Shown: positions 1 through 8,306, numbered from the stretch's first letter. The stretch is 64,000 bases of DNA from Escherichia coli (GCF_003018255.1 NZ_CP027440.1), one strand, 5' to 3'. The notes: generated by a model not told the origin, from the sequence alone. Numbers and translations: made by a program.

Positions 1-331
1 GAAAAACACTGGCCCATTGATTGAGAAACAGACGCAAATCCAGCGCGCGTGGATTGAGGATCAATCCGGCATGTCCGTTCAAATGCTGGTTTGTGAACGC
101 ACCAACTTGCTCATGGACTGCATATTCATTACGACAAATACATTTGGTCTCGCCAACACTTTCGAGCGCCGCCAGAATTTCACGGATATCGCCGCGCATC
201 CGCCACGCATCGTGCGTGACGCGCGCAAATGCCAGTTCTGCTTCGCTAATATTCATTAAACCTGCGATGTCACGCGCGTACTTTCCGGGATTTTGTTCTT
301 TTAACTCAAGCCAGCGTGTGTAGTGGTTCAT
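1..331 (-). CDS. chuS: Heme oxygenase / heme-degrading protein ChuS, N-terminal part (gene runs off the window start)
   Basis: Reverse-complement translation from the ATG at 331-329 gives MNHYTRWLELKEQNPGKYARDIAGLMNISEAELAFARVTHDAWRM..., recognised as the ChuS/ShuS/HemS N-terminus; sits immediately downstream of chuA on the same strand as in the chuA-chuS operon. Not in the ORF track because it is truncated by the window edge. Confidence 0.8.
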   Translation of the reverse strand, partial: MNHYTRWLELKEQNPGKYARDIAGLMNISEAELAFARVTHDAWRMRGDIREILAALESVGETKCICRNEYAVHEQVGAFTNQHLNGHAGLILNPRALDLRLFLNQWASVF

Positions 332-379
332 TGTCTCTCTTCCTTCCAGATAAATGCCCCGAAATATCGGGGCAGATGA

Positions 380-2362
380 TTACCATTGATAACTCACGAA
401 AATTTTTCCATTACGACCATCCTGTGGGATGCCTTGTGGCGACCAGTACTCTTTGTCGAAAGCGTTACCCAACACCAAAGTAGTGGTCATACCTTTGAGC
501 GCCTGTTGTCCTTGATAACTGACGTAGAAATCATTCACGCCATAGCCTGGTTGTTTGCTGTAACTGCTGCTGATATGTGTTGAGCGATCGGCAAACGTAC
601 CAACCCACCCAACAGAGAAGCCACTGTGAGCGATCGGAATATTCAGGGTGCTGGTAACGGTATCCGGGTTAATACTGGAGATATATTCGCCGGTATCGGT
701 GTCTTTGCCGCGGGTACGGTTATAGGCCACATCAAGGCTAAACAGATCAGTGGTATATTTCGTCATCACATCCCAACCCCAGATTTTGGCGTTCGGGACG
801 TTATACGACATAGTTGTCGCCGCCGCGAAATCGACGGTCGTGGAGATGTAATCCTTCGCTTTGGTATCAAAGTAGCTGGCTTTAAATTCCAGAGCATCAT
901 TGGACAACATCAGGTCATCAAAACGCAGCCCAAAACCGTACTCCTGAGTTTCGTTAGTTTCCGGACGTAAGTTCGGGTTTGGCACCCAATAGTTGGTATA
1001 GAAGCGACCAATCGAGAAGTGCTTAGAATCGTTATACATTTCGCCCATCGTCGGGGCGCGGAATGCCTGAGCATATGAGCCAAATAACATCAGCCAGTTA
1101 GTCGGGTTGATAGTCATCCCCGCGCGAGATGACCATTTGTCGGCATCAACATCTTTGTAGCCGTCGCTGCTACCGCGATAACTGTCATAGCGGGTTCCGC
1201 CAAGCAGGGTAATCGGCAGATCGCGTAAGGTGATCTCATCTTGTAGCCAGCCAGAGCTAAAATCGATTTTTGCTTGCGGGAAGCCCGTCGTCGCGCCACC
1301 CGGATGTTGTTCCTGACGATAATACTCACCGCCATATGTCAGTAAGTGAGAAGCGAAACTGTCGGCAAATAGAGTGGAACGGTTCTCCAGCCTTGCTCCT
1401 TTTGTTATCTGTTCACGATACTCGCCGGAACTCCCCGTGTTTTGCGCATTAATACGGACTTCCGACCAGTAAATTTTTGCATCTGCATTTAACCAGTCGT
1501 TACCCTGCGGGGCGAGTTTATAAGAAAGCTGCGCATCGCGTTGAATTGTTGAACGATCGACCATCGGGTTGCTGCTATCAGAAGCTTCAACGGTCTGCGG
1601 ATTTTTTGGTTCACGCGCGTCGTTGTTGTAGTAACGCACTAAACCGCTCAGAGACTGAGCTGAATCAATTTGCCAGGTCCCTTTCGCCAGCATGTTATTA
1701 ATGGATTCGTCATTCGGCGCGGTTTCACCATTGCTCTGGCGTAAATCACCCCGATCGCGACTGGACCAGGCCACAATACCATCCAGATTTTCAGTTCGCC
1801 CAAACGCGCTCGCGCCTAATCCCAGGCTATGGTCCCCCGTGCCGCCAGTACCAAAGACACGAAAACCACTGCTTTGTCCTTCCTGCAATAAATCTTTTGC
1901 ATCGACCGTATCGTAGGAGATCACTCCACCCAGCGCGCCACTGCCATACAGTAATGCTGAAGGTCCGCGAACAATCTCAACACGCTTGATCAGCGCCGGA
2001 TCGAGAAAAGTGCCATTCAGGTGTCCGGTATCCGTTCCCTGGCGAACACCATCGACAAGAACCAGCACGCCGCGATGATCATAGCCACGCATATTTACAT
2101 CCTGACCGTTGGTTCGTCCGGTACCATCAAGAGTAATTCCAGGAACATGACGCAGCAGATCGGTGGCTGAAGTAGCCGTTTGATTTTCAGGAGCGGAAGT
2201 GTCGATGACGCTGACCATCATAGGCGCTTCGAAGGAACTACGGGCATTCCCCGTTGCCGTAACGGTCATGGTTTCAGTAGCAAAAGCAAACGTTGGCAAG
2301 GTGGCAGAAACAGCCAAAGCCAACAAACTCAAACGCAACGAGGTAAATTGCGGACGTGACAT
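380..2362 (-). CDS. chuA: TonB-dependent outer-membrane heme/hemoglobin receptor
   Basis: 660-aa ORF with signal peptide, TonB-box-like N-terminus and C-terminal beta-barrel ending in an aromatic residue (…FVSYQW); matches ChuA/ShuA. Confidence 0.9.
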   Translation of the reverse strand: MSRPQFTSLRLSLLALAVSATLPTFAFATETMTVTATGNARSSFEAPMMVSVIDTSAPENQTATSATDLLRHVPGITLDGTGRTNGQDVNMRGYDHRGVLVLVDGVRQGTDTGHLNGTFLDPALIKRVEIVRGPSALLYGSGALGGVISYDTVDAKDLLQEGQSSGFRVFGTGGTGDHSLGLGASAFGRTENLDGIVAWSSRDRGDLRQSNGETAPNDESINNMLAKGTWQIDSAQSLSGLVRYYNNDAREPKNPQTVEASDSSNPMVDRSTIQRDAQLSYKLAPQGNDWLNADAKIYWSEVRINAQNTGSSGEYREQITKGARLENRSTLFADSFASHLLTYGGEYYRQEQHPGGATTGFPQAKIDFSSGWLQDEITLRDLPITLLGGTRYDSYRGSSDGYKDVDADKWSSRAGMTINPTNWLMLFGSYAQAFRAPTMGEMYNDSKHFSIGRFYTNYWVPNPNLRPETNETQEYGFGLRFDDLMLSNDALEFKASYFDTKAKDYISTTVDFAAATTMSYNVPNAKIWGWDVMTKYTTDLFSLDVAYNRTRGKDTDTGEYISSINPDTVTSTLNIPIAHSGFSVGWVGTFADRSTHISSSYSKQPGYGVNDFYVSYQGQQALKGMTTTLVLGNAFDKEYWSPQGIPQDGRNGKIFVSYQW

Positions 2363-2400
2363 AGCGATTCTCCATGAGGAAAATAAAAAATGCTGGCTGC
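2363..2400 (-). promoter_or_regulatory. Candidate FourU-type RNA thermometer in the chuA 5' leader, occluding the Shine-Dalgarno
   Basis: On the mRNA strand the sequence is UUUUCC-UCAU-GGAGAA immediately 5' of the AUG; UUUUCC can pair with the GGAGAA Shine-Dalgarno with one G-U wobble. A FourU thermometer has been described for shuA/chuA leaders. Confidence 0.4.
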
Positions 2401-2651
2401 CTGGGTTAATACCGGGGTGGCTGGCGAAAAATAAATTTATTTAAAATTCAGAGCGATAATATTCGCCGGGTGAGTTTACAGGCGTTTATATCCCATGAAA
2501 TTGCCTGGTATCTCGGCAAATACGCAAAAGCACGCCCTCTTTGTCAGGCAAACCGATATGCCCCATCAGGAGTGAAGAGCGCTGTGCGTTACCCCTTGTA
2601 AATGATATGGCTTTGTTATCCATATGGCCGTATTTTGTTAAATGCAAACGT

Positions 2652-2670
2652 GATAATGAGAATTATTATC
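2652..2670. promoter_or_regulatory. Fur box (iron-responsive operator) in the chuA promoter region
   Basis: GATAATGAGAATTATTATC compared with the Fur consensus GATAATGATAATCATTATC (about 17 of 19 matching); about 290 bp upstream of the chuA start, consistent with a long leader. Confidence 0.6.
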
Positions 2671-6495: not shown

Positions 6496-7488
6496 GTGCT
6501 CAAGGATTCACTCTCTTCCGCCAGGGTCTTTATGGGGCTATCACTATTATTGCTAGCTCTGGTGCTGTTTGGTGCCAGTCAGGGAGCGTTAAAGATCAGT
6601 TTTGATGCCCTTTTTGATGAGGAATACCGCGATATCTGGCTCAATATTCGTCTACCACGGGTTTTGCTGGCGGTGCTGGTAGGTGCAGCGTTGGCAACCG
6701 CCGGGGTAATTATGCAGGGGCTTTTTCGCAACCCAATGGCTGACCCTGGATTACTTGGCGTCAGTAGCGGTTCTGCATTAATGGTTGGCGTTGCTATTGT
6801 GCTGCCCTTCTCCTTCCCAGTGGTGCTGGTGCTCTATGAGCAAATGGTGTTTGCCATTGCCGGAAGTTTAGTGGTCTGCACCATCATTTTTCTCATCACG
6901 CAGCGCCATCGCGATGGCAGCATGATGCAATTATTACTCGCCGGTATCGCCATCAATGCCCTGTGCGGCGCAGCGATCGGCATCCTGAGCTATATCGGCG
7001 ATGAGCAGCAGCTACGACAACTCACATTGTGGATGATGGGCAATCTTGGACAGGCGCAATGGCCGACGTTATTGGTTGCCAGTTCATTCATCCTACCGGC
7101 CATTATCGCAACAACTTGTCTCGCCGGAACGCTGAATTTACTGCAGCTCGGTGATGAAGAAGCCCATTACCTCGGCGTGAACGTTAAGCGTAAACGCCAG
7201 CAATTACTGTTAGTGAGCTCACTGCTCGTTGGTGCCGCCGTATCGGTAAGCGGCATTATCGGCTTTATTGGCCTGGTGATCCCGCATCTGATTCGCATGA
7301 CTACCGGAGCAAATCACCGCTGGCTAATCCCTTGCTCCGCCCTCGCCGGAGCCTGTTTATTGCTGATGGCAGACACGCTTGCCCGCACGCTGGTACAGCC
7401 AGCAGAAATGCCCGTGGGATTATTAACCAGCCTGCTTGGTGGTCCTTATTTTATGTGGTTGATTCTGCGCAACCGGAGGATCACATGA
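6496..7488 (+). CDS. chuU: Heme ABC transporter permease
   Basis: 330 aa, GTG start, multi-pass hydrophobic FecCD-type permease. Confidence 0.85.
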
Positions 7489-8255
7489 TCAGCGCCCAGA
7501 ATCTGGTTTATAGCCTTCAGGGGCGGCGTCTGACTGATAATGTCTCGCTGACTTTTCCCGGTGGGGAAATTGTTGCCATTCTCGGCCCTAATGGTGCGGG
7601 AAAATCTACGCTGCTTCGCCAGTTAACCGGCTATCTTCAACCTGATAGCGGCGAATGTCGGTTGTTTAATAAGCCATTAAATGAATGGTCGATTACTGAA
7701 CTGGCGAAACACCGGGCCGTGATGCGTCAAAATAGCCACATGGCGTTTCCATTCAGCGTACAAGAAGTTATCCAGATGGGGCGGCATCCGCATCGCACTG
7801 GTAATCAGGATAATGAAACAGCACAAATAATGGCGTTATGTGACTGTCAGGCGTTAGCAAACCGCGACTATCGGCAATTATCCGGTGGTGAACAACAGCG
7901 CGTACAATTAGCGCGCCTGCTGGTGCAACTCTGGGAACCAACTCCCTCACCGAAATGGTTATTTCTTGATGAACCAACTTCGGCGCTGGATATTCACCAT
8001 CAGCAGCACTTGTTCCGTTTATTACGCCAGTTAGTTCACGAACGGCAGTTCAATGTTTGCTGCGTATTGCACGATCTAAATCTTGCCGCGCGTTATGCAG
8101 ACCGTATTGTATTAATGCAAAAAGGAAAGGTTATCGCAAATGGTAAACCACAGGACGTATTGACACAGCAGGCGCTGACCATGCTTTACGGCGCGGATAT
8201 TACCGTACTTAAAGATCCTGCCAACCATTCACCCCTGATCGTCCTCGATCATTAA
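7485..8255 (+). CDS. chuV: Heme ABC transporter ATP-binding protein
   Basis: ORF track 7332..8255; start placed at the ATG at 7485 (MISAQNLVY…), which overlaps the chuU stop (ATGA) and follows a GGAGGA Shine-Dalgarno. Walker A (GPNGAGKST), ABC signature (LSGGEQQR) and Walker B (LFLDEPTS) present. Confidence 0.85.
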
Positions 8256-8262
8256 AACCAAC

Positions 8263-8285
8263 AGGAGTACCGCACTGGTACTCCT
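8263..8285. terminator. Hairpin in the convergent chuV / yhiD gap, possibly a bidirectional terminator
   Basis: Inverted repeat AGGAGTACC-GCACT-GGTACTCCT between two convergent stop codons; flanking U-runs are weak. Confidence 0.35.
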
Positions 8286-8306
8286 GCGAATAAATAACTA
8301 TACAGA

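Follow-up and report, generated by a model that had tools for sequence, protein, structure and literature searches.

The chu haem-utilisation locus of Escherichia coli looks like an old, chimeric resident of the dctR-yhiD site rather than a recent insertion

The first 8,302 nucleotides of the 64,000-nucleotide stretch of Escherichia coli DNA analysed here (NZ_CP027440.1, assembly GCF_003018255.1; "the window" throughout, positions counted from its first letter) are with high probability the Fur-repressed chu/shu haem-utilisation locus (O-island 140) at its usual site between dctR and yhiD, where it would be an old resident of chimeric make-up and not a recent insertion. An initial annotation, made from the sequence alone, had presented the same DNA as a horizontally acquired, virulence-associated module embedded in a stress island. 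A foreign origin is still likely on the comparisons reported below, though an ancient and composite one; what did not survive them is the idea of an insertion into a K-12-like island in the chu-positive lineages.

The chu locus in other Escherichia lineages

One genome per species was scanned with ChuA, and all neighbour genes were then compared by tblastn. This placed chu at exactly the same site in E. albertii (L048), in two other divergent lineages, labelled E. coli E69 (L038) and SCPM-O-B-8794 (L059), and in an E. albertii-like contig (L093). Nucleotide identity to the window was 87-92% for the chu genes and 84-92% for the flanks in E. albertii, 89-93% and 91-97.5%, respectively, in L059, and 89-96% and 85-94% in L038. 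Between the chu-positive lineages there is also homology in the junction spacers, the left one with the chuS terminator and the right one with that of yhiD. Because chu and its flanks have diverged to a similar degree and are joined by homologous spacers at the same site, chu would already have been evolving here when these lineages split. The locus thus looks like an old patchwork resident, which may have occupied this site before E. coli, E. albertii and other Escherichia diverged.

The locus presents one of the usual hallmarks of a genomic island, lineage-restricted presence with intact empty sites, and both states recur in other Escherichia lineages. Another hallmark, a distinct base composition, is missing from the chu segment. 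The G+C content (GC) of window 1-8302 is 0.505, against 0.525 in the rest of the window and 0.461 in the acid-fitness genes at 8303-20800, where hdeAB, gadE and gadWX have values of 0.33-0.42. The GC comparison across position 8300 that the initial annotation had proposed for the acquired module therefore came out the other way: the GC of chu is typical of E. coli, and it is the neighbouring acid-fitness genes that deviate. The codon-usage comparison gave a more mixed result, with the chu genes mildly atypical in GC at third codon positions (GC3; 0.47-0.57 vs. 0.61 +/- 0.06) and in codon typicality (0.54-0.67 vs. 0.69 +/- 0.05), and a recent insertion is not favoured by it.

Identity and extent of the locus

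In a megablast search of window 1-12000 against 5,426 complete E. coli genomes the closest record was strain JNE23-011, which is colinear with the window and differs from it at 2 bases in these 12 kb. Its annotation reads arsRBC ... slp, dctR, then chuS and chuA on the minus strand, followed on the plus strand by shuT (chuT), chuW, chuX, chuY, chuU and chuV, and then by yhiD, hdeB, hdeA, hdeD, gadE, mdtEF, gadW, gadX and gadA. This gene order bears out the earlier placing of the chu cluster next to yhiD in the acid-fitness island, and beyond chuS it has the neighbours expected of that island, dctR and then slp. The eight genes of the chu segment all serve haem uptake, according to the same annotation.

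Window 1-8302 is the right-hand 8.3 kb of a chu-specific segment of 9,058 bp, whose left 756 bp (the remainder of chuS and the chuS terminator) lie beyond the window. Six-frame calling of open reading frames (ORFs) gave uninterrupted frames for yhiD and for all chu genes inside the window. The cluster, earlier called whole, is intact from chuA to chuV; chuS, which starts at 331, runs off the window edge after 110 of its 342 codons. This chu allele is rare: only 6 of 5,422 matching records were at least 99% identical over 12 kb.

The location of chu between dctR and yhiD is correct, ordinary and, as the initial annotation had said, already published. O-island 140 was placed "between yhiF and yhiD" (PMC10540162), the acid-fitness island was given as 22 kb in EDL933/O145:H28 vs. 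13 kb in K-12 (PMC9144400), and the xenoGI paper described the haem locus within the acid-fitness island of O157:H7 and E. albertii (PMC5799925). The original observation matters little in itself, as it only marks the strain as belonging to a chuA-positive lineage, the basis of Clermont phylotyping.

Junctions and comparison with K-12

The statement that K-12 lacks chu holds: MG1655 has dctR and yhiD separated by 41 bp. When K-12 and the chu haplotype are aligned, the shared sequence breaks off 1 nt beyond the stop codon of dctR and is picked up again at CAGATTAGCTAA (window 8302/8303), 4 nt short of the yhiD stop codon; the right boundary given earlier, 8306, was thus right to within 4 nt. 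The convergent stops of chuV and yhiD, said to be about 50 bp apart, are separated by 51 bp (8256-8306). In place of the 9,058-bp segment K-12 carries 36 bp without counterpart in the chu locus; a search of that locus for this K-12-only filler, as a possible deletion scar, returned nothing but 8-12-mers at chance level. Judged from these alignments, the 41-bp spacer of K-12 is replaced wholesale and is not a target site split by an insertion.

At least 80% of window 1-12000 was found in 2,232 of the 5,426 complete genomes, and 3,179 had the uninterrupted K-12 junction; the full chu locus is present in about four in ten E. coli. No direct or inverted repeats were detected at the segment ends (positions 7243/16302 of the near-identical genome locus L001), and neither the annotation nor an Rfam scan revealed an integrase, mobility genes or a tRNA in or near the 9-kb segment. 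Up to 35-55 nt from the junction the K-12 flanks do not depart from ordinary E. coli sequence. We also considered, and rejected, import of the K-12 flank tract from a chu-negative lineage (L088): the 26 + 18 differences between the window and K-12 had no L088-specific pattern, and none was closer than 35-55 nt.

States of the dctR-hdeB interval

The interval between dctR and hdeB exists in at least five states (neither gene set; yhiD; chu; chu with yhiD; chuSA with yhiD). In a syntenic lineage 85-89% identical to E. coli (L087-L090, e.g. CP056642.1) dctR is followed by 42 bp and yhiD, with no chu. In a colinear alignment this 42-bp spacer agrees with that of K-12 at 27 of 42 positions, with a local score reached by 0.45% of shuffles; as shuffling gave p about 0.002-0.005 for three pairs among 40 tests, such values are suggestive only. 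The K-12 and divergent-lineage spacers are probably homologous. In a still more divergent contig (L091; Logan SRR26188688) dctR stands directly before the hdeB terminator, with neither chu nor yhiD, and in E. albertii, where chu is present and yhiD absent, chuV adjoins the hdeB terminator. The hdeB-proximal spacer (window 8955-9017) is clearly homologous in the window, E. albertii and L091 arrangements. On these arrangements yhiD is a second, independent presence/absence unit.

Escherichia sp. MOD1-EC7003 (L004) has kept chuS-chuA, and the equivalent of window 2793-8298, i.e. chuTWXYUV, is replaced by an 82-bp fragment resembling the enterobacterial repetitive intergenic consensus (ERIC), also called intergenic repeat unit (IRU); the same strain has a full ERIC copy of about 122 bp in the 5' untranslated region (UTR) of chuA, at the equivalent of window 2489. 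The acid-fitness island of E. fergusonii (CU928158.2) is without chu and has an unrelated 73-bp spacer. Further DctR homologues (P0015, P0007) yielded no new lineage: L094 and L095 were of the K-12 type and L097 of the L038 type, and P0022 (L096) was of the window type.

It was also observed that the E. fergusonii island is non-syntenic, lying beside uxuA, and more divergent than expected for the species (69-83% at the nucleotide level, from dctR with 69% to hdeA with 83%; DctR protein 63%). An independent acquisition of this island was proposed previously (PMC5799925), and the divergence found here fits that proposal.

How the chu and empty alleles may have arisen

A gain within E. coli, in which the ancestors of the chu-positive strains took up chu into an acid-fitness island of the K-12 kind and K-12 still has the original empty site, is in our opinion very improbable. 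The empty site in K-12 and in 3179 of 5426 genomes, its recurrence, with a spacer that is probably homologous, in a divergent Escherichia lineage, the chu-free island of E. fergusonii, the mildly atypical GC3 and codon usage and the mobilisation of a related TWXYUV module onto an IncC plasmid beside ISCR1 (see below) would all agree with it. However, E. albertii, L038 and L059 share the site and the junction spacers with a divergence matching that of the flanks, and any insertion should therefore be older than the species E. coli. Moreover, no remnant of the 41-bp spacer flanks chu, there are no repeats, integrase or tRNA, and the GC equals the genome average. A within-E. coli gain of chu can be regarded as largely refuted by these comparisons.

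It is harder to dismiss, if still rather unlikely, that the Escherichia ancestor had chu as a fixed locus and that K-12 and phylogroups A, B1 and C lack it through one simple deletion in their common ancestor, with the empty site of L088 as an independent deletion. The presence of chu at the dctR-yhiD site in outgroup lineages speaks for this, as does the established experience of Clermont typing that the derived A/B1/C clade alone lacks chuA. Loss of a part of the locus is also on record, as MOD1-EC7003 lost chuTWXYUV and kept chuSA, and the K-12 flanks are ordinary up to the distance given above. On the other hand, a deletion should leave a spacer made of the ends of the chu locus, and the 36-bp filler of K-12 has no direct-orientation likeness to either chu junction spacer. 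Nor would independent deletions be likely to produce colinear spacers of 41 and 42 bp with 27/42 identities and the same stop-codon limits. A simple recent deletion in the A/B1/C ancestor thus does not seem to account for the K-12 spacer.

Long residence of chu in the genus, our preferred reading, leaves both the chu and the empty allele probably old. The empty allele may be ancestral or may stem from one deletion long ago; the present comparisons favour neither. As the two alleles share no intergenic sequence, their interchange would most plausibly take place by homologous recombination in the flanking acid-fitness genes.

Several observations weigh against this reading. The chu genes of L038 are about 3 points nearer to E. 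coli than its flanks are, and some exchange between lineages is possible. As dctR lies outside the window, the left junction was derived from near-identical genomes and orthologous loci. The chu genes deviate somewhat in GC3 and codon typicality, as would be expected for foreign DNA. The homology between the K-12 spacer and that of the divergent lineage is statistically weak (p about 0.005, one of 40 tests), and a resemblance of equal strength, in inverted orientation only and with TAGCCAGAC shared, was seen between the K-12 spacer (L003 5215-5255) and the chuS terminator region (L001 7243-7302; p about 0.002).

The gene chuA is usually called part of an acquired island, although it is the phylogroup marker in widest use and a vaccine and virulence target. 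Our data argue for an old resident of the genus, and it would be the absence of chuA from A/B1/C strains that needs explanation.

A receptor-less operon joined to a hemR-hemS-type pair

The make-up of the locus suggests a specific model: chu would be a chimera, apparently undescribed, of a receptor-less TWXYUV operon and a hemR-hemS-type chuA-chuS pair, with tandem ChuT signal peptides and an ancestral FNR site, and its presence or absence would be an old shared polymorphism and not a gain by pathogens. Taken as a whole, we see this model as evenly balanced between right and wrong.

Two different sets of relatives point to the two parts. About 75 Enterobacteriaceae outside Escherichia have a colinear hemR-hemS-T-U-V cluster without W, X and Y, in which identity is 59-89% to ChuA and 61-85% to ChuS, and about 33%, 61% and 51% for T, U and V, respectively. 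In a blastn search of plasmids, window 3194-8255 (chuTWXYUV) was colinear at 76% nucleotide identity with a stretch of Providencia rettgeri IncC plasmids located beside ISCR1 and IS26; the amino-acid identities of the plasmid copy to the window were 86% (W), 88.5% (X), 79% (Y), 88% (U) and 80.5% (V). The same operon is chromosomal in Kluyvera and in Citrobacter, where it lies between cueR and a copA-like ATPase gene, in the order receptor (714-717 amino acids)-T-W-X-Y-U-V. Its T proteins are 77-85% identical to ChuT, and its receptor is 29.5% identical to ChuA.

The alignment of the chuT promoter with that of the Citrobacter/Kluyvera-type operon runs on into coding sequence (window 3046-3190 vs. 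L101 5854-5930 and 8001-8060, L103 and L098). Residues 1-25 of ChuT (MPRIITRPFLFSPLTLCISAVASAA) align with the receptor's signal peptide (MLPRNNQRPFILSALTLCMSGAAFAA), and the T protein's own signal peptide has its counterpart in residues 31-55. The T homologues from outside Escherichia are all 274-279 amino acids long and lack the first ~30 residues of ChuT. Behind the remnant, the original methionine of T is still in frame in E. albertii, L038 and L059, and it has been lost in E. coli proper. The crystallised ShuT (2R7A/2RG7) begins at residue 49, past both signal-like segments. The simplest reading of these alignments is an in-frame deletion of the 2.1-kb receptor gene, after which the remnant operon would have been joined to a hemR-hemS-type pair. 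Loss of the receptor in frame would have fused its signal peptide to chuT, giving the predicted tandem signal peptides.

In the literature we found no description of a chu chimera or of a receptor fossil, in a search that did not cover the key 1998 paper of Wyckoff et al. With the putative signal-peptide fossil in chuT, the assembly of the locus can be put as a concrete model open to testing. The fossil, the chimera and the FNR site, which are apparently undescribed, make up a set of modestly interesting leads together with the multi-state interval.

The conjugative P. rettgeri plasmid pBML2526 (NZ_LC507075.1) was noticed to carry a block of Citrobacter chromosome (SPFH/NfeD ... cueR, receptor-TWXYUV) beside ISCR1, IS26 and blaCTX-M-2. 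Given this neighbourhood, an anaerobic haem-utilisation operon appears to have been mobilised together with resistance genes.

A candidate FNR site upstream of chuT

Class I FNR promoters have the sequence TTGAT-N4-ATCAA at about -61.5, -71.5 or -82.5. The 64 kb of the window contain only 2 perfect matches to this consensus (0.13 expected). One is the candidate site upstream of chuT (Table 1), which lies in a block, 2908-2942, that is invariant in five Escherichia lineages. The other, TTGATAGGAATCAA at 22347-22360, is 108-121 nt upstream of a 465-amino-acid ORF on the minus strand (20842-22239), ccp/yhjA, which is FNR-dependent and whose site provided a positive control within the window. In Citrobacter, Kluyvera and the plasmid copy the site reads TTGAC-N4-ATCAA, with 1 mismatch, 118-122 nt before the start codon vs. 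121 nt in the window, in surroundings that have diverged.

A conserved predicted FNR site at about -72 would give chuTWXYUV an anaerobic input, and on the conservation described such an input is probable. FNR activation would make biological sense, as ChuW and ChuY, enzymes of anaerobic haem degradation, are products of this operon. A literature search on FNR control of chuT or chuW returned nothing relevant. The candidate site represents a testable link between oxygen limitation and the genes of anaerobic haem degradation.

Promoters, Fur boxes and thermometer

The initial annotation had placed Fur boxes at both divergent promoters, and a scan with the 19-bp Fur consensus (at most 3 mismatches) detected them at 2652-2670 and 3004-3022, the only matches in the whole 64 kb, with 0 expected by chance. 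For chuA, transcription is reported to begin 291 nt before the ATG (PMC9002310), which corresponds to window 2653 and lies within the first box. In S. dysenteriae shuT starts 42 nt upstream of its ATG, with the Fur site just downstream (PMC5458455); in the window this start falls at 3004, where the second box begins. In CFT073 chuAS and chuTWXYU are direct Fur targets (PMC7157518). When the 683 bp between chuA and chuT were aligned across five Escherichia lineages, no change was seen in the thermometer or in either Fur-box/promoter block, while much of the remainder is variable. The two divergent promoters, about 350 bp apart, would each be repressed by Fe-Fur, and chuA would additionally be under the control of its 291-nt leader, which ends in a predicted FourU thermometer. 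An 18-codon ORF between the Fur boxes (2731-2787, MKLILRPGNHFAFMVIPP) was considered and set aside as probably no gene: neither its start nor its stop is kept in the other lineages of Escherichia.

Features of the locus and other observations

The features of the chu locus and its right-hand neighbour are collected in Table 1. ChuS, ChuT, ChuU and ChuY had no NCBIfam model above cut-off, and for chuY there was no match to an NCBIfam hidden Markov model at 1e-10. The roles of the proteins are established for their families. Haem is expected to pass through the outer membrane by way of ChuA, driven by TonB, and to be transferred into the cytoplasm by ChuT, ChuU and ChuV; there ChuS would degrade it aerobically, and ChuW, ChuX and ChuY would serve its anaerobic degradation and handling, with release of the iron.

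Table 1. Predicted and annotated features at the left end of the window
Feature	Position	Strand	Basis
chuS, 5' part (N-terminal 110/342 codons); haem oxygenase/haem-degrading, co-transcribed with chuA	1..331	-	annotation, open frame, Pfam HemS/ChuX_HutX on orthologues
Hairpin between chuA and chuS, putative role	355..374	-	terminator-like scan: 8-bp stem, 6 GC pairs
chuA, TonB-dependent outer-membrane haem/haemoglobin receptor	380..2362	-	NCBIfam TIGR01785 588 bits (cut-off 317); annotation
FourU RNA thermometer over chuA ribosome-binding site	2360..2391	-	Rfam RF02597 shuA_thermo, 60.1 bits (gathering 58)
chuA 5' UTR, about 291 nt	2363..2653	-	published start mapped (PMC9002310)
Fur box, chuAS promoter, 17/19 to consensus; overlaps -10 element and transcription start	2652..2670		consensus scan
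Promoter-like TTGATC-17-AATAAT of chuA, overlapped by first Fur box	2690-2662	-	motif scan
Candidate FNR site TTGATAAAAATCAA, perfect consensus	2925..2938		centred about -72.5 from chuT transcription start
Fur box, chuTWXYUV promoter, 16/19; at/immediately downstream of transcription start	3004..3022		consensus scan
chuT (shuT), periplasmic haem-binding protein	3046..3960	+	annotation; ShuT structures 2R7A/2RG7 match residues 49-304
chuW, radical-SAM methyltransferase (HutW), anaerobic haem degradation	3980..5317	+	NCBIfam TIGR04107 571 bits (cut-off 400)
chuX, cytosolic haem carrier	5330..5824	+	NCBIfam TIGR04108 HutX 210 bits (cut-off 110)
chuY, anaerobilin reductase	5824..6447	+	RefSeq annotation; Pfam NAD_binding_10/NmrA on orthologues
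chuU, haem ATP-binding cassette (ABC) transporter permease	6496..7488	+	annotation; best NCBIfam matches BtuC/FecCD-type, under cut-offs
chuV, haem ABC transporter ATPase	7485..8255	+	NCBIfam NF010068 396 bits (cut-off 261)
yhiD terminator: strong hairpin, 11-bp stem, then minus-strand T-run; within chu-specific DNA	8261..8287	-	kept in other chu-positive lineages having yhiD
yhiD (MgtC/SapB family), first acid-fitness-island gene right of chu	8307..8954	-	NCBIfam NF007431 398 bits (cut-off 214); 98.3% identical to K-12 yhiD

Two observations concern the window outside the chu locus. Its near-identity to JNE23-011, with 2 differences over 1-14850, gives way from about 14851, inside mdtF, to sharp divergence with many single-nucleotide polymorphisms and, later, indels; the position looks like a recombination breakpoint. 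Of the phylogroup-typing markers the window has chuA alone; JNE23-011, the closest genome over the chu region, lacks arpA and yjaA, which gives an arpA- chuA+ yjaA- pattern, F or G/B2-like, in a strain from which the window diverges after 14851. At 52946-54796 a 483-bp unit stands in 3.8 tandem copies (96% matches), which carry four rdlD antitoxin RNAs identified by Rfam and four Ldr toxin genes given in the annotation; K-12 has a single ldrD/rdlD copy at the corresponding locus.

Comparison with known systems

Like the tRNA-linked pathogenicity islands, such as the locus of enterocyte effacement (LEE) at selC and the high-pathogenicity island (HPI) at asn-tRNA, chu is a strain-variable, virulence-associated block, here of ~9 kb, that is absent from K-12. 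It differs from them in that a tRNA target, an integrase, direct repeats and a deviating GC are all missing, and its boundaries coincide with the stop codons of conserved neighbours.

The hemRSTUV/hmuRSTUV operons of Yersinia and many Enterobacteriaceae have first two genes that are close to ChuA and ChuS and stand in the same order and orientation. They form, however, one colinear operon with distant T, U and V and no chuW, chuX or chuY, outside acid-fitness islands, whereas chu is divergent and has the extra W, X and Y. The receptor-T-hutW-hutX-chuY-U-V operon of Citrobacter and Kluyvera is the counterpart of the other half, with a homologous promoter in which the FNR-like site, the -35/-10 elements and the Fur box have the same spacing. 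In contrast to chu, it has its own receptor as first gene, no chuA-chuS partner and another chromosomal site; of that receptor Escherichia keeps ~26 codons.

The closest known systems are the chu locus of O157:H7 (O-island 140) and the shu locus of S. dysenteriae, which have the same genes, order, orientation, site, Fur boxes and FourU thermometer (PMC10540162, PMC9002310, PMC5458455), and from which the locus in the window differs by alleles only.

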